DNA from: Dehalococcoidia bacterium
Lineage (GTDB): Bacteria; Chloroflexota; Dehalococcoidia; UBA2979
Length of the DNA stretch: 64,000 nucleotides
Direction of reading: 5' to 3'
NCBI GenBank assembly: GCA_965208885.1
Contig: CBDBPS010000002.1
Location: forward strand, 1,237,750 to 1,301,749
The notes below the pieces were generated by a model. That model was not told where the DNA came from and did no database searches. It saw only the letters and a program-made list of their open reading frames with translations. The translations under genes and the position numbers were made by a program. Positions 39,016 to 48,759 of this stretch are shown piece after piece (positions within the stretch are counted from its first letter, which is position 1; the number at the start of each line of letters is the position of its first letter).

Positions 39016-39429
39016 ATGGAAGTGGACTTCGCGTTCCTCAGCGACTACGCGGAGGAGTCCGGGGGAAAGCTGCACGCGCTCGGCGTGGGCATCGACCGCA
39101 TCCAGGCGCACTCGGTGCCGACGCGTCACCCGCAGCTGACGATGGTGGCGCAGATCCGCTACTCGGCGGCGGAGGCCGGCAGCCACCGCCTGGAGGTGCG
39201 CGGCTTCGACGCCGACGGACAGGACATCGTCGACAAGGTCGAGGGTGAGCTGCCGTTCCCGACGCTCAGTGGAGGCACCAGCGGCACGGCACGCGTGCTC
39301 GTGAACCTCGTGGGCGTGAACTTCCCGGACTACGGCGACCACTCGTTCCACCTCGTGATCGGCGGGATCGAGGTCAGCCGGGCGTCGGTGCGTGTGGTGG
39401 AGCCGCCCGAGACGAGCGACGACGCATGA
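39016..39429 (+). CDS. hypothetical protein (137 aa)
   Basis: Very high GC3 and a stop/start overlap (ATGA) with the next small gene. Confidence 0.55.
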   Translation: MEVDFAFLSDYAEESGGKLHALGVGIDRIQAHSVPTRHPQLTMVAQIRYSAAEAGSHRLEVRGFDADGQDIVDKVEGELPFPTLSGGTSGTARVLVNLVGVNFPDYGDHSFHLVIGGIEVSRASVRVVEPPETSDDA

Positions 39430-39620
39430 GCGAGATCATCTTTGAGGTAGTAGAGGCGCCGGAAGGTGGTTACACGGCCCGCGCGCTCGGCCACTCGATC
39501 TTCACCGAAGCCGACACCTTCGAGGAGCTTCGATGGATGGCGCGCGATGCCGTCCGCACGCACTTCGACGAAGACGATCCGAACCGCCCCGGGGAGATCG
39601 AACTTCGGTCAGCCAGGTAG
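39426..39620 (+). CDS. HicB-like / UPF0150-type small protein (antitoxin-like fold)
   Basis: The 'IIFEVVEAPEGGYTARALGHSIFTEADTFEELRWMARDAV' pattern resembles HicB_lk_antitox domains. Translationally coupled to 39016..39429. Confidence 0.5.
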   Translation: MSEIIFEVVEAPEGGYTARALGHSIFTEADTFEELRWMARDAVRTHFDEDDPNRPGEIELRSAR

Positions 39621-39625
39621 TCGCG

Positions 39626-41326
39626 CTACGCGTCGAGTTCGTCTGGGAGGCGGAACTCGACGTCCTCCTCCGTCAGCACGATGGGCTCGACCTTCGTCAC
39701 ACCCCGCGCCTTGAGGTCTTCGATGATCGGGTCGAGGAGCTCGTCGGGGACGGACGCGCCCGACGTGAGGCCCACGACTTCGACGCCCTCGTACCAGGCC
39801 GGGTCGACGTCCTCGATGCCGTCGACGAGGTAGGCGGTTGCGCCGGCGTCCTCGGCTACCTCACGGAGCCGCATCGAGTTGCTTGAATTGCGCGAGCCGA
39901 CGACGAGCACGAGGTCCGCCCGCTGCGCGATCGTGCGCGCCGCGTGCTGGCGGTTCGTGGTGGCGTAGCAGATGTCGTTGCGGACCTCGGCGGCCGGGTA
40001 GCGGTCGCGGATCTCGTCGATCACGCCGGCGGTGTCGTCCATCGAGAGCGTGGTCTGCGTCACGACGAAGACCGGGCGCCCGATCTCGCCAAGCGCGGCC
40101 ACCTCGGACGGGTCCTCGACGACGTGCGTCCGCTCGGGCGCCTCGCCGAGCGTGCCGACGGTCTCGTCGTGGCCGCGGTGGCCCACCAGGAGCACGTCGT
40201 AGCCGCGCTTCGCGGCCTGCTTCGTCTCGAGGTGCACCTTCGTCACGAGGGGGCACGTGGAGTCGACGACGCGCAGGTTGCGTCGCTCCGCCTCTTCGAC
40301 CACCGCGGGCGAGACGCCGTGCGCACTGAAGACGACGCGCGAGCCCTCGGGCACCTCGGCGAGGTCGTCGATGAAGACGACGCCGCGCGCCTCGAAGCTC
40401 TCGACGATGTGGCGGTTGTGGACGATCTCGTGGAACGCGTAGATCGGCGGCGACTCGCGCTCGACGATCATCTCGAGCGCCTCGACGGCGCGCACCACGC
40501 CGGCACAGAAGCCGCGCGGGGCGGCTATCAGCAGCGTGTGCGGCGTGACGCCCGTGCGGTGGCGCGACGGCGCGTGCCGGGTCGGAGCGAGCGAGACGGA
40601 GCCATGCCTGAGCGGTGGCGGCGCCACGCGCCGGCCGCGGGGTCGGCCTCGGAGCGCGGTGGCGGACCATGCCGCCCGGCCACCATCGCCCCGATCCTCG
40701 CGATGCGGCATGACGTCGACGCGCGGCGGCAGCATCAGGCTGACGACGCGCAGCGCCGCCGGCGGGATGCGCTGGGCGTGCTTGCCGTAGAGCTCGATGG
40801 CTTCCCGGCGCTTGCGGCAGACGGCCTCGGAGACGCGCGCGTCGGCATCACCAACCACGCCGCGAACCTGCGAGACGGCGCCGAGGATTGGCTCGGTGAG
40901 CAGGTCCATGAGCAGCTCGTCCGTACCCGGCGTCCACCCGGGGTGGGAGATGCGGGGCGGGAGTGCGAGGCTCACGACACGCAACGCCGGTGTGGGGATA
41001 CGCTCGGCCTGCGCTCCGCAGAGCTCGAGGGCTTCCTGGCGCCTGCGGCTGACGGCCTCGGAGACGCGCTCGTCGGCCTCGCGGGCCACCTCGCGCACCT
41101 GCGAGACCACGTCGAGGATCGGCTCGGTGATGACGTCGACGAGCAACTCGTCGCCCGTGCGGGGCGACCAGCCGGGGTGCGTGAGCCGGGGTGGCAGCAT
41201 CAGGTCCACGACGCGCCGCACAACCCCGCGACTCCGGGTCGCGATGGAGTCCAGCCAGGTGCCGCCAGAGGCGTCTTTCGGCATCGACGGAATTCCCCCG
41301 TGCAAGCCTCGCCTGCACGCCGCCAT
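39626..41326 (-). CDS. ispH: 4-hydroxy-3-methylbut-2-enyl diphosphate reductase (IspH/LytB) with an in-frame N-terminal extension of about 250 aa; alternative shorter start ATG 40711
   Basis: The C-terminal 300 aa is canonical IspH ('PRGFCAGVVRA', 'HEIVHN', 'SAHGVSP', 'TCPLVTKVH', 'VVGSRNSSNS'). The frame stays open upstream through the tandem repeat region with GC3 above 90%; no stop separates it from the IspH core. Confidence 0.6.
   Translation of the reverse strand: MAACRRGLHGGIPSMPKDASGGTWLDSIATRSRGVVRRVVDLMLPPRLTHPGWSPRTGDELLVDVITEPILDVVSQVREVAREADERVSEAVSRRRQEALELCGAQAERIPTPALRVVSLALPPRISHPGWTPGTDELLMDLLTEPILGAVSQVRGVVGDADARVSEAVCRKRREAIELYGKHAQRIPPAALRVVSLMLPPRVDVMPHREDRGDGGRAAWSATALRGRPRGRRVAPPPLRHGSVSLAPTRHAPSRHRTGVTPHTLLIAAPRGFCAGVVRAVEALEMIVERESPPIYAFHEIVHNRHIVESFEARGVVFIDDLAEVPEGSRVVFSAHGVSPAVVEEAERRNLRVVDSTCPLVTKVHLETKQAAKRGYDVLLVGHRGHDETVGTLGEAPERTHVVEDPSEVAALGEIGRPVFVVTQTTLSMDDTAGVIDEIRDRYPAAEVRNDICYATTNRQHAARTIAQRADLVLVVGSRNSSNSMRLREVAEDAGATAYLVDGIEDVDPAWYEGVEVVGLTSGASVPDELLDPIIEDLKARGVTKVEPIVLTEEDVEFRLPDELDA
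40741..41230 (-). repeat. diverged tandem duplication (2 x about 234 bp, roughly 75% nt identity) inside the N-terminal extension of the ispH reading frame; each copy encodes an LPPR(L/I)(T/S)HPGW...TEPIL...VSQVR...RVSEAV...RIP...ALRVVSL motif
   Basis: Self-alignment of 40741-40975 against 40975-41230. Confidence 0.8.
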
Positions 41327-41370
41327 TTGTCCAGCGTCGAGCGCGAATATTTCCGATCACGAACGGCATC

Positions 41371-41700
41371 CGGCCCCTCGCCCCGCCGTCGGGGGCGAGG
41401 GGATCAGATCTGGACCCCGCAGGGCCCGCTGGGGGCGAGGGGAGCCGATCCGTCCCCCTCTCCCTGTATGGCTGGGTCGGCGAGCCGAGGGCGCGCCCTC
41501 GGCTCGCCTCGATGCGGGGATACCCCGCTGGCCCCGCCGGGGGCGAGGGAAGCCGATCTGTCCCCCTCTCCCCTTGTGGGAGAGGGCTGGGGTGAGGGGT
41601 TCCGGCGGCTGGCGCTCTTCGCGTGGCGCCCCCCTCACCCTAACCCTCTCCCCCCAGGAGGGGGGCGAGGGGATCAGATCGGGCGCCGGGGGCCGAGCCT
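41371..41700. repeat. tandem cluster of at least five GC-rich palindromic repeat units (GGGGGCGAGGG(G/A)(A/G)(T/G)C(A/C)GATC with CCCCTC(A/G)CCC / CCCTCTCCCC arms) in the ispH / RM-enzyme divergent intergenic region
   Basis: Copies at 41371-41414, 41417-41480, 41517-41600, 41630-41700 and partial arms between them. Confidence 0.85.
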
Positions 41701-41751
41701 GTGTCCCAACGGACGCAGTCCATTACGATCGCGCTGAAGCGAGGAGCGCCC

Positions 41752-44682
41752 GTGACCGCCGCACCCGGCATCTCCGCCGCCGCGTTCGCCGCCAAGTGGC
41801 GCGACAACGCGCGCCGCGAGCACGCATCCTCGCAGGAGCACTTCATCGACCTCTGCCGCCTGCTCGGCGTGCCGACGCCCAATGAGGCCGACCCCACCGG
41901 CGAGTCGTACACGTTCGAGGCGGGTGCGGAGCGGCTCAGCACGGGGCGGCAGGGCTGGGCCGACGTCTGGAAGCGCGGCCACTTCGGCTGGGAGTACAAG
42001 GGCGCGCACGCCGACCTCCGCGCGGCCTACCGCCAGCTCCTCGACTACCGCGAGGACCTTGAGAACCCGCCCGCGCTCGTCGTCAGCGACATGGACCGCA
42101 TCGAGGTCCACACGAACTTCACGGGCACCCGCCCCGTCGTGCACGACGTCACGCTCGACGACCTGGCCGAGGGCGGCGACCGTACCGCCGAGGCGATGCG
42201 CATCCTCGGCGCCGTCATGCTCGACCCCGCCGCGCTGCGGCCGGAGCAGACGCCCGACGAGATCACGCAGCTGGCCGCGGCGCGCTTCGCCGAGATCGCG
42301 CAGTCCATGCACGAGCGCGGGCACGACCCGGAGGCGGTCGCGCACCACCTCAACCGCGTCGTCTTCTGCCTGTTCGCCGAGGACGCCCGCCTGCTGCCGG
42401 AGCGCGTGCTGACCGAGATGATCGAGTCGCGCCGGGGCGACCCGGAGGCGTTCGACACCGGGCTGCGCGAGCTGTTCCTACGGATGTCGGACCGCGACGC
42501 CGACCGCTTCTACGGCAACGTGCGCGTCGAGTGGTTCAACGGCGGGCTCTTCGACGACGCCGAGGTGATCCCGTGTACCCGCGAGGAGCTGCGCGCGATG
42601 CACGACGCGGCGCTGCTCGACTGGTCGCGGGTGGAGCCGGCGATCCTCGGCACGCTGTTCGAGCGCGGGCTGGACCCGGACAAGCGCGGTCAACTGGGCG
42701 CGCACTACACGGACCACGAGAAGATCATGATGGTGGTCGAGCCCGTGGTGCTCGAGCCGCTGCGCCGCGAGTTCGAGGCGATGCAGGCGCGCGTCGAGGA
42801 GCTGGCGGGCGGGCAGGAGCCGAGCCCGCTCACGCTCGACGGTCGCCGCCGCGAGCGGCTACCGGCGTGGGAGCGGGACGCCGAGGCGGAGTGGCGGGCG
42901 TTCCTCGAACGGCTGCGGGCGGTGCGGGTGCTGGACCCGGCGTGCGGGTCGGGGAACTTCCTGTACGTGACGCTGCGGCGGCTCAAGGACCTGGAGCATG
43001 AGGCGATCCGCTGGGGCGCGGAGCGGCTGCGCATTCCCGCCGACTTCCCGCAGATCGATCCGCACAATGTGCTGGGCATCGAGATCAACCCGTACGCGAG
43101 GGAGCTGGCGGGCGTCTCAATCTGGATCGGGCACATCCAGTGGATGATCGACCATGGGTACGGTCTCCCGCGCGACCCGGTGCTCGATCGACTCGACAAC
43201 ATCGAGCTACGCGACGCGATCCTCGCCTACGACGACGAGGGCACCCCGGTTCCGGCCACCTGGCCGGAGGCCGAGTTCGTCGTCGGCAACCCTCCGTTTC
43301 TTGGTACCAAGCTCATGAGGCTGTCGCTGGGGGACGAGTACGTCGGCGACGTGTTCGTTGCGTGGGACGGCTCAGTGGCTCGCGAGTCGGACTTGGCGTG
43401 TTACTGGCACGAGCTCGCGCGAAGGCGGATCGCGGAGGGCGTGACGCGGCGCGCAGGTCTCCTCGCTACTAACTCGATCCGCGGCGGCGCGAACCGCACC
43501 ACGCTCGACCGGGTCAAAGGGAGCGGCGAGATCTTCATGGCCTGGTCTGACGAGGAATGGGTCGTCGAGGACGCGGCTGTGCGCGTTTCGATCGTCGGGC
43601 AGGACGACGGCTCGGAGGCCGAACGGACACTCGACGGAGATGTTGTTGACGTGATCAACAGCAACCTGACGACCGGCGTAGACGTGACGCAGGCTCGCAT
43701 GCTCGGTGAGAACGCGGATGCCTCGTTCATGGGGGACACTAAGGGCGGAGCATTCAACGTTCCGGGCGAAGTGGCCCGCGAGATGTTGAAGCAGCCCACG
43801 AACGTCAACGGGCGCCGCAACGCTGACGTGCTGGTGCCTTGGGTGAATGGGCTGGACGTCACCCGGAGGCCACGGGGCACCTTCATCATCGACTTCGGTG
43901 CGGACGCCAGCGGGTCTGACGCGGCTGCGTACGAAGCGCCGTACGGGTACGCCCGGAAGCACGTCCAGCCAGTTCGCGCGAACAACCGGCGCAAGGCTTA
44001 CCGCGAACGGTGGTGGCTCCATGTTGAGCCCCGACCAGCGATGCGAAAGGCTCTGGCTCCGCTACGCCGTTTCGTCGCAACGCCCACGGTGGCCAAGCAC
44101 CGCCTGTTCGTCTGGCTGTCAGCCCCAACGCTCCCCGACCACCAACTCATTGTCATTGCGCGGGAGGACGACTACGCGTTCGGGGTGCTGCACTCGCGGG
44201 CGCACGAGCTATGGTCGCTGCGCATGGGGACGTGGCTCGGCGTTGGGAACGACCCGCGCTACACGCCCACCTCCACCTTCGAGACCTTCCCCTTCCCATG
44301 GCCCCTCGACACCCCCGACGAGGCGCTGACCGACGAGCAGCGCGCGCACCGCGACGCCATCGGCGAGGCGGCGCAGGCGCTCGACGAGTCGCGTCGGCGC
44401 TGGCTCAACCCGCCCGAGCTCGTGCGCGAGGAGCCCGACGTTGTGCCCTCGCTGCCCACGCGCCTGCTCCCCGTCGACGGGGACGCCGAGCGGGTGCTCA
44501 AGCGCCGCACGCTCACCAACCTCTACAACGAGCGCCCGGCGTGGCTCGCCAACCTCCACCGCGCCCTCGACGCCGCCGTGTTCGCGGCCTACGGGTGGTC
44601 GGAGGCCGGGGAGCCGGATGAGCTGGGGGAGGAGGAGCTGCTGGGGCGGCTGCTGGCTCTGAATTTGGAGCGGGCGGGGTAG
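41752..44682 (+). CDS. MmeI-family Type IIL (type IIG) restriction-modification enzyme: N-terminal PD-(D/E)xK endonuclease fused to an N6-adenine methyltransferase and target-recognition region
   Basis: N-terminal 'WADVWKRGHFGWEYKG' (D...EYK, matching MmeI-family 'FW.GK.LIEQKS'). MTase motif I is 'VLDPACGSGNFLY' and motif IV is 'VVGNPPFLG'. A roughly 400-aa lower-GC C-terminal region follows. GTG 41752 with a GAGGAG RBS; the track start 41701 is the alternative. Confidence 0.85.
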   Translation: MTAAPGISAAAFAAKWRDNARREHASSQEHFIDLCRLLGVPTPNEADPTGESYTFEAGAERLSTGRQGWADVWKRGHFGWEYKGAHADLRAAYRQLLDYREDLENPPALVVSDMDRIEVHTNFTGTRPVVHDVTLDDLAEGGDRTAEAMRILGAVMLDPAALRPEQTPDEITQLAAARFAEIAQSMHERGHDPEAVAHHLNRVVFCLFAEDARLLPERVLTEMIESRRGDPEAFDTGLRELFLRMSDRDADRFYGNVRVEWFNGGLFDDAEVIPCTREELRAMHDAALLDWSRVEPAILGTLFERGLDPDKRGQLGAHYTDHEKIMMVVEPVVLEPLRREFEAMQARVEELAGGQEPSPLTLDGRRRERLPAWERDAEAEWRAFLERLRAVRVLDPACGSGNFLYVTLRRLKDLEHEAIRWGAERLRIPADFPQIDPHNVLGIEINPYARELAGVSIWIGHIQWMIDHGYGLPRDPVLDRLDNIELRDAILAYDDEGTPVPATWPEAEFVVGNPPFLGTKLMRLSLGDEYVGDVFVAWDGSVARESDLACYWHELARRRIAEGVTRRAGLLATNSIRGGANRTTLDRVKGSGEIFMAWSDEEWVVEDAAVRVSIVGQDDGSEAERTLDGDVVDVINSNLTTGVDVTQARMLGENADASFMGDTKGGAFNVPGEVAREMLKQPTNVNGRRNADVLVPWVNGLDVTRRPRGTFIIDFGADASGSDAAAYEAPYGYARKHVQPVRANNRRKAYRERWWLHVEPRPAMRKALAPLRRFVATPTVAKHRLFVWLSAPTLPDHQLIVIAREDDYAFGVLHSRAHELWSLRMGTWLGVGNDPRYTPTSTFETFPFPWPLDTPDEALTDEQRAHRDAIGEAAQALDESRRRWLNPPELVREEPDVVPSLPTRLLPVDGDAERVLKRRTLTNLYNERPAWLANLHRALDAAVFAAYGWSEAGEPDELGEEELLGRLLALNLERAG

Positions 44683-45925: not shown

Positions 45926-46810
45926 ATGTTCTTCATCAACGTCGTCAAGCAGTACGAGCGGGCGGTCGTCTTCCGCCTCGGCCGTCACATCGGCACGCGC
46001 GGGCCGGGGCTCGTGATCCTGATTCCGTTCGTCGACAACGGCGTGCGCGTCGACCTGCGAGAGTTCGTGATCGAGGAGCCCAAGCAGACCTCGATCACGA
46101 AGGACAACGCGCTCGTCGACGTGGACTTCGTCGTGTTCCTGCAGGTTGCGCAACCCGAAGACGCGGTCATCAACATCAACAACTTCGTCGTCGCCGTCCG
46201 CAACCTGGCGACCACCTCGCTGCGCGCCGTCATCGGCGACCTCACCGTCGAGGATGTGCTGGCCCGCCGCGAGGAGATCAACACGCGGCTGCAGGTCAAG
46301 ATCTCCGAGGAGACCGTGCGCTGGGGCGTCGAGGTGCGCTCCGTCGAGATCCGCGAGATCACGCCGCAGGCCGACATCCAGCACGCGATGACCCAGCTCC
46401 TCACCGCGGACCGCACGAAGCGCGCGCTGATCACCGAGTCCGAGGGCGAGCGGCAGGCCGCGATCAACGTGGCCGAGGGCAACAAGCAACGGTCGATCCT
46501 CGAGGCCGAGGGCTCACGCGAGTCCCAGATCCTGCGCGCGGAGGGGTCGCGCCAGGCGCAGATCCTGGAGGCCGAGGGCTTCTCGACCGGCCTGCAGCGC
46601 ATCTACGAGACGGCGCAGGGCGTCGACTCGAAGACGATGGGGCTGCAATACCTGGACATGATGAAGCAGCTGGGCGCGGGCGAGTCCACGAAGTGGATCA
46701 TCCCGATGGACCTCGCGAGCGTCGCGGGCGGCCTCAGCGACACGCTGTCGGGCCTGTCGAGCATGGGTGGCAACGGCGACGGCGCGGGGAGCGCCAACGG
46801 CGACAGCTAG
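45926..46810 (+). CDS. SPFH / band-7 (stomatin-prohibitin-like) protein
   Basis: 'VKQYERAVVFRLGR' and the EA-repeat coiled coil 'ILEAEGSRESQILRAEGSRQAQILEAEG'. There is no obvious N-terminal TM helix. Confidence 0.9.
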   Translation: MFFINVVKQYERAVVFRLGRHIGTRGPGLVILIPFVDNGVRVDLREFVIEEPKQTSITKDNALVDVDFVVFLQVAQPEDAVININNFVVAVRNLATTSLRAVIGDLTVEDVLARREEINTRLQVKISEETVRWGVEVRSVEIREITPQADIQHAMTQLLTADRTKRALITESEGERQAAINVAEGNKQRSILEAEGSRESQILRAEGSRQAQILEAEGFSTGLQRIYETAQGVDSKTMGLQYLDMMKQLGAGESTKWIIPMDLASVAGGLSDTLSGLSSMGGNGDGAGSANGDS

Positions 46811-47541: not shown

Positions 47542-48759
47542 CTACTGGTAGCCCTCCTCGGCGCTGGTGTCCTCGCGCGGCTTGCGGGTCGGGGCGAGGT
47601 AGCGCACGGCGATGACGCCGACGAACGCGCCGATGAGCAGCGTGATCGCGACGATCGTGCCGAGCATGATCGTGAGCACACGCTGGATGCCCACCTCGGT
47701 GTCACCGCCGCCGATCCAGATCCCGACGGCGATGGCGACCGCGATCGCCGCGCCCGCTCCGAGCACGCCCCCGGTCGGGATGAAGATCTCCAGCACCACG
47801 AGCAGCGCGGCTAGCCCGAGCAGCGCGATCGCCGTCTCGCCCGGCAGCAGCGTCCCTAGCCCGAGGAACGCGAGCAACAGCGCGATCGCGCCGGCGGTGC
47901 CAGGCAGGAACGTCCCCGGTGCGAAGAACAGCTCCGCCCCGATCCCGATGACCCCGATCAGCAACAGCAACGAGACGATCAGCGGGCTGCTGACGATCGC
48001 CAGCACGCGCTCGTAGGGATTGAAGGCGTTCTCGACGCGCGGCGCCGTCACCAGCTGCAGCTCGACCGTGCGCCCGCCGATCAGCTCCACCTCACGCCCC
48101 TCGATGGCCTCGAGGAGGTCGGCCTCGGTGGCGGCGACGAGGTCGACGACGTTGAGCTCGACGGCCTCGTCGGGCGTGGCGGAGCGGGCGTCGCGGACGG
48201 CTTCTTCGGCCCAGTCGGCGTTGCGGTCACGGAACTCGGCGACGGCGCGCGCGAACGCGACGGTGTCGTTCGTGACCTTCTCGCCGAGGTCGCCCTCGAC
48301 GTCCTCGCCGGTGGCGGCAATGGGCGTCGCCGCGCCGATGGTGGTGCTGGGCGCCATCGCCGCGACATGGCCGGCCATCACTACGAACGTGCCGGCCGAG
48401 ACGGCTTCCGCCCCGGCAGGCCCCACCCACGTGACCACGGGGACCCCTGCGTTCTCGATGAGCCCGACGATCGTCTTCATCGCGGTGATCTCGCCGCCCG
48501 GCGTGTCGACGCGGAGCAGCACGGCGCGGGCGTTGGTCTCCTCGGCGTGGTCGAGGGCGCGCTCGATGTAGCGCTCGAGGACGAAGTCGACCTGGCGGTC
48601 GATGGTGACCACGTGGAGGGCACCGGTGGTGTCGTCGGGCGCGCAGGCAACGGCGAGCGAGGCGACGGCGAGGAGCGTGGCGGACAGGAGCGTGAGTGCG
48701 CGTCGAGGAAGAGAGCGAGCCATCCGAGCCTCCGTGGCGACGCATGCCGCCACTACCAC
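47542..48759 (-). CDS. NfeD-family membrane-bound ClpP-class serine protease
   Basis: 'PGGEITAMKTIVGLIE', a 'SAGTFVV' nucleophile region and C-terminal TM helices plus OB-fold. Confidence 0.85.
   Translation of the reverse strand: MVVAACVATEARMARSLPRRALTLLSATLLAVASLAVACAPDDTTGALHVVTIDRQVDFVLERYIERALDHAEETNARAVLLRVDTPGGEITAMKTIVGLIENAGVPVVTWVGPAGAEAVSAGTFVVMAGHVAAMAPSTTIGAATPIAATGEDVEGDLGEKVTNDTVAFARAVAEFRDRNADWAEEAVRDARSATPDEAVELNVVDLVAATEADLLEAIEGREVELIGGRTVELQLVTAPRVENAFNPYERVLAIVSSPLIVSLLLLIGVIGIGAELFFAPGTFLPGTAGAIALLLAFLGLGTLLPGETAIALLGLAALLVVLEIFIPTGGVLGAGAAIAVAIAVGIWIGGGDTEVGIQRVLTIMLGTIVAITLLIGAFVGVIAVRYLAPTRKPREDTSAEEGYQ

Follow-up and report, generated by a model that had tools for sequence, protein, structure and literature searches.

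An IspH (LytB) fused to a conserved N-terminal module of tandem repeats and an AT-hook-like linker in a narrow clade of uncultured Dehalococcoidia

IspH (LytB) is an essential and well-studied iron-sulfur (Fe-S) enzyme and drug target that carries out the last step of the methylerythritol phosphate (MEP) pathway, and its canonical bacterial type is exemplified by the 316-amino-acid enzyme of Escherichia coli. Fusions of IspH, such as those with RPS1 and UbiA, have been taken as 'Rosetta stone' hints to extra roles. The fusions and extensions described so far comprise IspH-RPS1, IspH-UbiA, cytidine monophosphate (CMP) kinase-IspH, IspH-helicase, FBPase-IspH and UDP/PNP phosphorylase-IspH (Rao et al. 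2015, PMC4746011), and the IspH of photosynthetic organisms (plants and cyanobacteria) carries an N-terminal conserved domain (PMC4746011). Here we analyzed an ispH gene from a Dehalococcoidia bacterium (GTDB lineage Chloroflexota; Dehalococcoidia; UBA2979) located within a stretch of 64,000 nucleotides of contig CBDBPS010000002.1 (assembly GCA_965208885.1), which we refer to as the window and whose numbering is used throughout. The IspH frame in this window is preceded by a long N-terminal extension consisting of diverged tandem repeats and a basic linker. We consider it likely, from comparison of the sequences, that extension and enzyme are one gene encoding one polypeptide at positions 39626-41284 of the minus strand.

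The complete gene (39626-41284, minus strand, with the stop codon at 39626-39628 included) was delimited from the open reading frame (ORF) and its homologs and encodes a fusion of 552 amino acids, a sequence that is held in identical form in public collections. The ORF listing gave a minus-strand frame without stops from 41326 to 39626 (566 codons), so that the frame is open from 41326 into IspH as the initial annotation had stated. The C-terminal 305 residues (aa 248-552; 39629-40543, minus strand) form a complete IspH catalytic core, which AlphaFold modeled with a predicted local distance difference test (pLDDT) score of about 90. PF02401 matched aa 266-538 of the 566-aa ORF over model positions 2-266 of 267 (304.6 bits, cutoff 24.5, E = 7.5e-91), and TIGR00216 scored 300.5 bits against a cutoff of 187.85. 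The core contains the Cys motifs GFCAGV (aa 258), STCPLV (aa 342) and DICYAT (aa 437) together with HEIVHN, SAHGVS, GHRGHDE, TQTT, SSNS and GASVP, all of which were invariant in our alignment. The roles of the [4Fe-4S]-ligating cysteines and of the substrate-binding His, Glu, Thr and Ser-Asn motifs are known from E. coli IspH. The core was approximately 80% identical to the ordinary IspH (311-321 aa) of neighbouring Chloroflexota, and the protein ends about 25 residues past the IspH domain. By its sequence the core is an intact IspH and a predicted HMBPP reductase. Homology to unextended IspH starts at 40543, and not at about 40590, where the core boundary had been placed previously. Set against canonical IspH/LytB, the fusion shares the complete enzyme and differs in its 247 extra N-terminal residues and in the loss of the ancestral start codon.

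We compared the fusion to protein family models of two extended types of IspH. The model for the plant and cyanobacterial type, NF009911 (PRK13371), scored 119 bits against a cutoff of 440, with its best stretch at aa 249-396 (model positions 55-208) and therefore only within part of the core. As this match did not reach into the extension, the N-terminal conserved domain of the photosynthetic type was not found here, and the extension is unrelated to it, as had been supposed. The model for the IspH-S1 type, NF000907 (PRK00087), scored 240.6 bits against a cutoff of 624 over model positions 3-277 only, which again corresponds to the core; no C-terminal S1 repeats were found by this model, in keeping with the position of the protein end.

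Relatives of the fusion were collected by a protein search with the whole ORF, by a scan of GTDB with a single genome taken for each species and by a scan of JGI metagenomes. The protein search returned 17 protein clusters with lengths of 543-601 aa, identities of 69-97% and query coverages of 93-98%, several of them on contigs of 2.6-3.5 Mb, and the next matches after these 17 were ordinary IspH proteins of 311-321 aa. The GTDB scan detected the extension in five species (L003-L007), all represented by Dehalococcoidia/Chloroflexi metagenome-assembled genomes (MAGs), one of which is a 3.3-Mb chromosome, and the metagenome scan added only three further, near-identical loci (L012-L014, on JGI/NCBI contigs). 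Complete genomes in which the fusion is present include OZ244720.1 (3.3 Mb). Across the sequences searched, the extension is confined to a single narrow clade, made up of uncultured Chloroflexota/Dehalococcoidia. The SB06xx series, to which two carrier MAGs belong, has further members that are listed as sponge-associated (PMC7883664), and a sponge-symbiont origin of the clade is plausible.

All of the relatives begin at a methionine equivalent to ATG 41284. In the window, a Shine-Dalgarno-like GGGGGA (41294-41299, minus strand) is located 9 nt 5' of this codon. Seven relatives were examined, and six of them (L003-L008) had a purine-rich block (GGGGGA, GGGAGG or GGAGGAG) at the matching site, 8-10 nt before the start, which was weak in L005 and L006; L009 had none. 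The conserved ATG, with a Shine-Dalgarno sequence in all but one of the relatives examined, places the predicted translation start at 41284. The first ATG of the open frame, at 41326, from which the extension had been counted in the initial annotation, is not kept in the relatives, and the 14 codons that separate it from ATG 41284 are unconserved, with a GC content at second and third codon positions (GC2 and GC3) of the non-coding type. Approximately 35-60 nt 5' of the fusion start, a TGGACAA block and an AT-rich block (AATATT, TATATT or TAATAT) are conserved, with equivalents in L003-L009. The AT-rich block is located at about 41330-41345 (minus strand) in a genome of 70% GC. These two blocks may be candidate promoter elements; a consensus scan for sigma-70 promoters and terminators gave no match at the locus.

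In unextended relatives the enzyme begins with ATG-CCG-CAC-ACG (MPHTLL) directly behind a Shine-Dalgarno sequence. The fused genes have ACG or GCG in place of this ancestral ATG, the window carrying ACG (Thr247; 40544-40546, minus strand), with the exception of P0018/L009, in which the ATG is retained. In-frame ATG, GTG and TTG codons within the linker vary between genomes, such that the sole in-frame linker start is an ATG 56 codons upstream of the core in L003 and a GTG 65 codons upstream of it in L007; none of these codons is conserved and none has a Shine-Dalgarno sequence. The same was found for ATG 40711 and GTG 40627 of the window, the two internal starts considered in the initial annotation, which are missing in several relatives. 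Because the ancestral start was lost and no internal start is conserved, it is most likely, as judged from these alignments, that the long protein is the sole form in which IspH is produced.

We considered whether two products might arise from the one frame, with translation of most of the catalytic IspH starting internally, either inside the linker or close to the core at a non-canonical codon, and the fusion being a minor or regulatory form. The in-frame ATG and GTG of the window would allow this, and NCBI annotation sometimes uses internal starts: the same gene is called in NCBI records at 600 or 553 aa (full fusion) and, from internal starts, at 381 or 342 aa for loci of the L005 (VXTU01000016) and L006 (VXMU01000024) types. 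The P0018/L009 lineage, in which internal initiation may take place at the retained ancestral ATG, also counts against a single long product. We nevertheless regard two products as unlikely, given that the ancestral ATG was lost elsewhere together with its Shine-Dalgarno sequence, that no replacement start occupies a conserved position, and that part of the linker, described below, is conserved as protein, which would be unexpected for an untranslated spacer.

The extension preceding the linker is built of tandem repeats, and the gene in the window contains 2.4 of them. A head of 29 residues (aa 1-29; 41198-41284, minus strand) is the remnant of a repeat 0 that, by alignment to relatives with three repeats, has undergone a 40-codon in-frame deletion. 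It is followed by repeat 1 (aa 30-107, 78 aa; 40964-41197, minus strand), which contains an LPPRLTHPGW loop, a predicted helix of approximately 44 residues and a short helix with PALRVVSL, and by repeat 2 (aa 108-184, 77 aa; 40733-40963, minus strand) with the same layout. At the DNA level we found a direct repeat of 204 nt with 78% identity and a spacing of 231 nt or 77 codons (40718-40921 and 40949-41152), along with a third, partial copy of the boundary motif at 41187. The 231-nt repeat was not reported by Tandem Repeats Finder and was found by a separate direct-repeat search. Repeats 1 and 2 shared 77.5% identity at the nucleotide level and 68% at the protein level, and their differences at codon positions 1, 2 and 3 numbered 17, 10 and 25, corresponding to a ratio of nonsynonymous to synonymous substitution rates (dN/dS) of 0.35. 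A coding, diverged tandem duplication, as had been proposed, is thus borne out; of the two 78-aa copies described at that time, the duplication itself stands, while the lengths are 78 and 77 aa and the number of copies is 2.4 here and three ancestrally. In generalized form the module of approximately 77 aa comprises a Pro/Gly loop, LPPR(L/I/V)(T/S)H(P/R)GW.P...D, a helix of approximately 45 residues, ELLVDVITEPILDAVSQVREVAREADERVSEAV.RKRQEALEL, and a short hydrophobic helix, PAALRVVSL.

Three full repeats were observed in 8 of the 17 related clusters. In the window subclade exactly 40 codons of the first repeat have been deleted in frame, which joins ...RGVVRRV to VDLMLPPR when compared to P0013-P0020 and L003-L007, and these alignments show an ancestral architecture of three repeats that was reduced in the window subclade to two full copies and a remnant. 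Modules were mostly more alike across species, when orthologous copies were compared (e.g. 94% and 86%), than within one protein (68%), and the duplication is therefore older than the clade. In P0019 and P0020, 4 codons of repeat 1 and nearly all of the linker have been deleted, and repeats 1 and 2 are nearly identical (88% in P0019). Together with the 40-codon deletion, these changes point to recombination or conversion between repeats that is still continuing.

Evidence that the extension is coding in the IspH frame was obtained from codon-position composition and from substitution patterns. GC3 and GC2 were 0.91 and 0.50 in the repeats compared to 0.95 and 0.42 in the IspH core, the former value agreeing with the GC3 of about 92% claimed for the repeat region. 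Using the Nei-Gojobori method, dN/dS between the window and the five species was 0.17-0.47 for the repeats, 0.15-0.65 for the linker and 0.09-0.25 for the core. When all six frames were compared as a control, dN/dS was nearly always lowest in the sense frame. The mirror antisense frame alone had comparable values, and the IspH core showed an identical pattern. Between these genomes, then, the comparisons show the whole extension to be under purifying selection in the IspH frame, and the earlier description of it as coding sequence holds. The chance of a 251-codon open frame at 70% GC was about P = 0.007 per frame, and the open frame alone is weak evidence because the opposite strand contains a shadow ORF of 597 aa. 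Chance falls far short of explaining the repeat and the codon-position pattern.

That same antisense ORF, and the general abundance of long stop-free frames at 70% GC, could be taken to mean that the extension is untranslated, being a GC-rich shadow frame in front of an IspH that uses a non-canonical start. The composition of the linker, where GC2 (0.84) exceeds GC3 (0.82) as in non-coding sequence, also speaks for this and against our interpretation. We consider an untranslated extension very improbable in view of the coding-type GC3 and GC2 of the repeats, the position of the lowest dN/dS in the sense frame, the 5' ATG and Shine-Dalgarno sequence that are conserved as described above, and indels that were multiples of three in all of about 20 relatives.

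The two antisense ORFs that overlap the fused gene, at 39944-41737 (plus strand, 597 aa) and 40797-41885 (plus strand, 362 aa), had dN/dS above 1 except in the mirror frame, and we therefore regard them as GC-rich shadow ORFs and not as genes.

Repeats, linker and IspH were found in a single unbroken frame in the about 20 relatives just mentioned, and this frame was stop-free in all of those of good quality; the stop codon that orthologs might have carried at this place was found in none of them. The 17 clusters and the five GTDB genomes keep the one frame with in-frame indels only, including the 40-codon deletion of repeat 0, insertions of 8 and 6 codons in the linker and single-codon indels. 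The near-complete linker deletion in P0019 and P0020 is in frame as well. The frame is likewise unbroken in L012-L014. In contrast, loci L001 and L002 have the region split into a small upstream 'gene' (P0002 and P0003) and a LytB gene. Both are error-prone long-read assemblies, L001 with about 3x coverage by its name, and both contain frameshifts in the region, L001 being frameshifted inside the IspH core too. A first search with the extension had returned just three small proteins, P0001-P0003, and the stand-alone repeat gene that these seemed to represent was rejected, as P0001 is cut by a contig end and the others derive from frameshifted long-read contigs. For the same reason we disfavour the suggestion made in the initial annotation that a separate overlapping gene is fused to ispH only in silico. 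An assembly or sequencing artefact, in which a missed frameshift or stop joined a separate upstream gene to ispH, has next to no likelihood, as the split loci that would favour it yield P0002 and P0003 tails that are out-of-frame translations, and the continuous fused frame is common to over 20 independent assemblies, short-read MAGs and megabase contigs among them.

The repeats are connected to the core by a linker of 63 residues rich in Arg, Pro and Ala (aa 185-247; 40544-40732, minus strand), which is predicted to be disordered. Arginine makes up 22% of it and its net charge is +9, compared to -26 in the IspH core, consistent with the Arg-rich linker noted after the repeats in the initial annotation. 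Inside this otherwise variable linker we found a conserved island, RAAWSATALRGRPRGRR (40628-40678, minus strand), with an AT-hook-like core RGRPR at 40637-40651, which across relatives takes the form RAAW(S/A).TALRGRP(R/K)GRR or WS.TALRGRPRGRR. Of the 17 related clusters compared, 16 retained the motif RGRP[RK]; outside this motif, the island was identical or near-identical in most clusters and more diverged in P0018, the most distant one. Synonymous DNA changes are present within the island, and the constraint is therefore on the protein level. The segment LRGRPRGRR (aa 211-219), predicted to be disordered with pLDDT below 35, has the features by which an AT-hook is recognized, namely an R before an invariant G-R-P core, basic flanks and an unstructured segment. 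The core consensus of the AT-hook is RGRP, as in HMGA (PMC8476142, PMC10432532), and the 5-mer RGRPR is common to the linker and to the AT-hook of WhiB7, KRPRGRPRKDAV (PMC10432532).

The module itself could not be placed in any described family. Searches of the whole extension against Pfam and NCBIfam (E <= 1) gave no family, searches of its parts against Pfam at E <= 10 gave sub-threshold noise only, and single repeats and the linker gave nothing significant against Pfam, NCBIfam and PDB. The best match in a PDB profile search of the extension had E = 0.38. A profile of 26 repeat units, compared to 1.84 billion representative proteins, retrieved only the present IspH family, fragments of it and a single spurious match, P0125, an unrelated low-complexity tandem-repeat protein that was rejected as a homolog of the repeat module. 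With tblastn, neither a remnant of the extension in the unextended loci L010 and L011 nor a second copy in the rest of the window was detected. Rfam contained no RNA family matching the extension, and the matches far below gathering score, all outside the extension and mostly on the upstream REP-like hairpin, were treated as chance. We found no description of this extension in the literature, where a survey of IspH fusions names other partners only (PMC4746011). Within the collections searched the module is an undescribed orphan domain found only with IspH, which agrees with the view that a duplicated N-terminal domain is unusual for a bacterial IspH.

AlphaFold predicted helices at aa 48-91, 98-107, 124-172 and 175-182 with low confidence. 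The long predicted helices, of 44-49 residues, contain heptad-like V/A/I/L patterns, again in models of low confidence; their hydrophobic moment peaks at approximately 96 degrees and V/A/I/L residues are abundant in two heptad registers. We infer that each module consists of a long amphipathic helix and a short hydrophobic helix, with Pro/Gly loops between modules. In these models the module looks like a coiled-coil or helical-bundle type, which would serve self-association or partner binding.

The functional model that we prefer, tentatively drawn from the sequence and from low-confidence structural models and considered by us a possibility that is more doubtful than probable, is that the extension oligomerises or localises the enzyme and leaves its chemistry unchanged. 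The helical modules would mediate self-association or the binding of a partner. The basic RGRP segment, with its charge of +9, would provide affinity for a polyanion, with the minor groove of DNA, RNA, acidic lipids and the very acidic IspH core itself (-26) as candidates. The extension would thereby oligomerise IspH, tether it, or both, and would have no part in catalysis.

Several observations weigh against this model and against the AT-hook-like reading of the linker. The pLDDT of the extension was 26-64 in the full-length model, compared to about 90 in the core, and averaged 44 when a three-repeat N-terminus was modeled alone. AlphaFold supported neither a tertiary fold nor an oligomer nor docking onto IspH, so that the proposal that structure prediction might dock the extension onto the enzyme found no support at these low confidences. 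A Foldseek search of PDB with the low-confidence three-repeat model gave only generic coiled coils with E > 0.3. The linker contains a single copy of the RGRP motif, and from its composition the chance of an RGRP in such an Arg/Gly/Pro-rich linker was estimated at ~3%. P0019 and P0020 are without the linker island, which is thus not indispensable. Finally, hmmscan of the linker against Pfam at E <= 10 gave no match to AT_hook (PF02178), a model that is very short and whose weak matches are dropped by the HMMER filters.

A bolder form of the model, which we think improbable and offer by analogy, is that the extension makes a self-assembling, nucleic-acid-tethered IspH, in which the repeats oligomerise, the RGRP hook anchors the protein to AT-rich DNA, and IspH moonlights as a redox- or iron-sensing regulator or as a nucleoid-associated factor. 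A candidate target of the hook would be the AT-rich box that is conserved in the promoter region of the fusion gene itself. Such moonlighting would have parallels in WhiB7, which combines an Fe-S cluster and an AT-hook, and in the proposed role of IspH-RPS1 fusions.

With respect to origin, the start site probably shifted upstream into sequence that was later tandemly duplicated. Subsequent change would have come through recombination between repeats, giving the 40-codon deletion in the window subclade and partial repeat homogenisation in P0019. A further reading, bold but more modest than the moonlighting one, is that the repeat module may have arisen de novo in non-coding DNA upstream and been amplified in tandem afterwards.

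The surroundings of the fused gene were also examined. In all relatives, the unextended ones included, the gene is tail-to-tail with a DUF6941 gene and with lpdA/pyruvate dehydrogenase genes. In the window the DUF6941 gene (39016-39429, plus strand) has a 4-nt overlap with an ORF of 64 aa (39426-39620, plus strand) that has no Pfam match, and both are convergent with ispH. At the position of this pair, the unextended locus L011 contains a gene for a HicA toxin together with a small partner, and the 64-aa ORF might accordingly be antitoxin-like.

On the upstream side, an SPFH/Band_7 gene (45926-46810, plus strand) is divergent from the fused ispH and forms a membrane scaffold pair with an NfeD gene (47542-48759, minus strand). 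Band_7 and NfeD are conserved upstream neighbours of the fused ispH and are not found upstream in the unextended loci L010 and L011. Between ispH and Band_7 the window contains an MmeI-type (type IIL) restriction-modification gene of 993 aa (41701-44682, plus strand), which is likewise directly upstream of ispH in L002, L005, L006, L009, L013 and L014. It is absent in L001, L003, L004 and L007, where Band_7 directly adjoins ispH, and the site upstream of ispH looks like a variable insertion site for defence genes.

Four to five elements resembling repetitive extragenic palindromic (REP) sequences, with the core GGGGCGAGGGGA followed by a GATC-containing sequence, were observed in the intergenic region between the start of the ispH fusion and the MmeI-like gene (41370-41690). 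Further REP-like elements were located at 770, 6292, 6320, 9284 and 53925, and in total the core occurred 10 times in the window compared to 1.4 expected. The cluster upstream of ispH includes a 35-nt imperfect hairpin at 41565-41665, for which Rfam gave only chance miRNA-like matches far below gathering scores.

The fusion adds a further IspH architecture, selected and conserved, in which the enzyme is apparently not made without an orphan repeat module and a basic, AT-hook-like segment. Should the module serve to oligomerise or localise IspH, this would be a new way of organising the last MEP step, and if the non-coding origin is true, the family would offer a clean example of how a domain is born when a start codon migrates and sequence is tandemly duplicated. 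A practical consequence is that annotation of the gene is inconsistent (342, 381, 553 or 600 aa) and the module has no family entry.

Proteins with AT-hooks include HMGA1, the bacterial WhiB7 (which binds a [4Fe-4S] cluster) and Myxococcus CarD, and RGR-type hooks occur in Lsr2 and Bv3F. The linker of the fusion resembles these in its RGRP core, basic flanks and disordered segment, and the fusion resembles WhiB7 further in being an Fe-S protein of a high-GC bacterium that contains the RGRPR 5-mer. It differs from them in that the motif is present in a single copy and in a metabolic enzyme instead of a transcription factor, and DNA binding is putative. The order of elements, a helical part followed by a flexible linker with RGR(P), is also that of nucleoid proteins of the H-NS/Lsr2 type, in which an N-terminal helical oligomerisation domain precedes a flexible linker and a basic minor-groove hook. 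This likeness is an analogy only, as there is no similarity in sequence or fold, no separate folded DNA-binding domain, and an enzyme follows the hook. From the known IspH fusions the extension differs in having no S1, UbiA, kinase or conserved-domain match. It is like them in that certain lineages have IspH attached to a further module, and in the plant and cyanobacterial conserved domain and the CMP kinase fusions this module is on the N-terminal side, as it is here. Judged by its sequence and its distribution among relatives, the fusion described here is a known enzyme carrying an undescribed orphan domain, and the feature is real and conserved.

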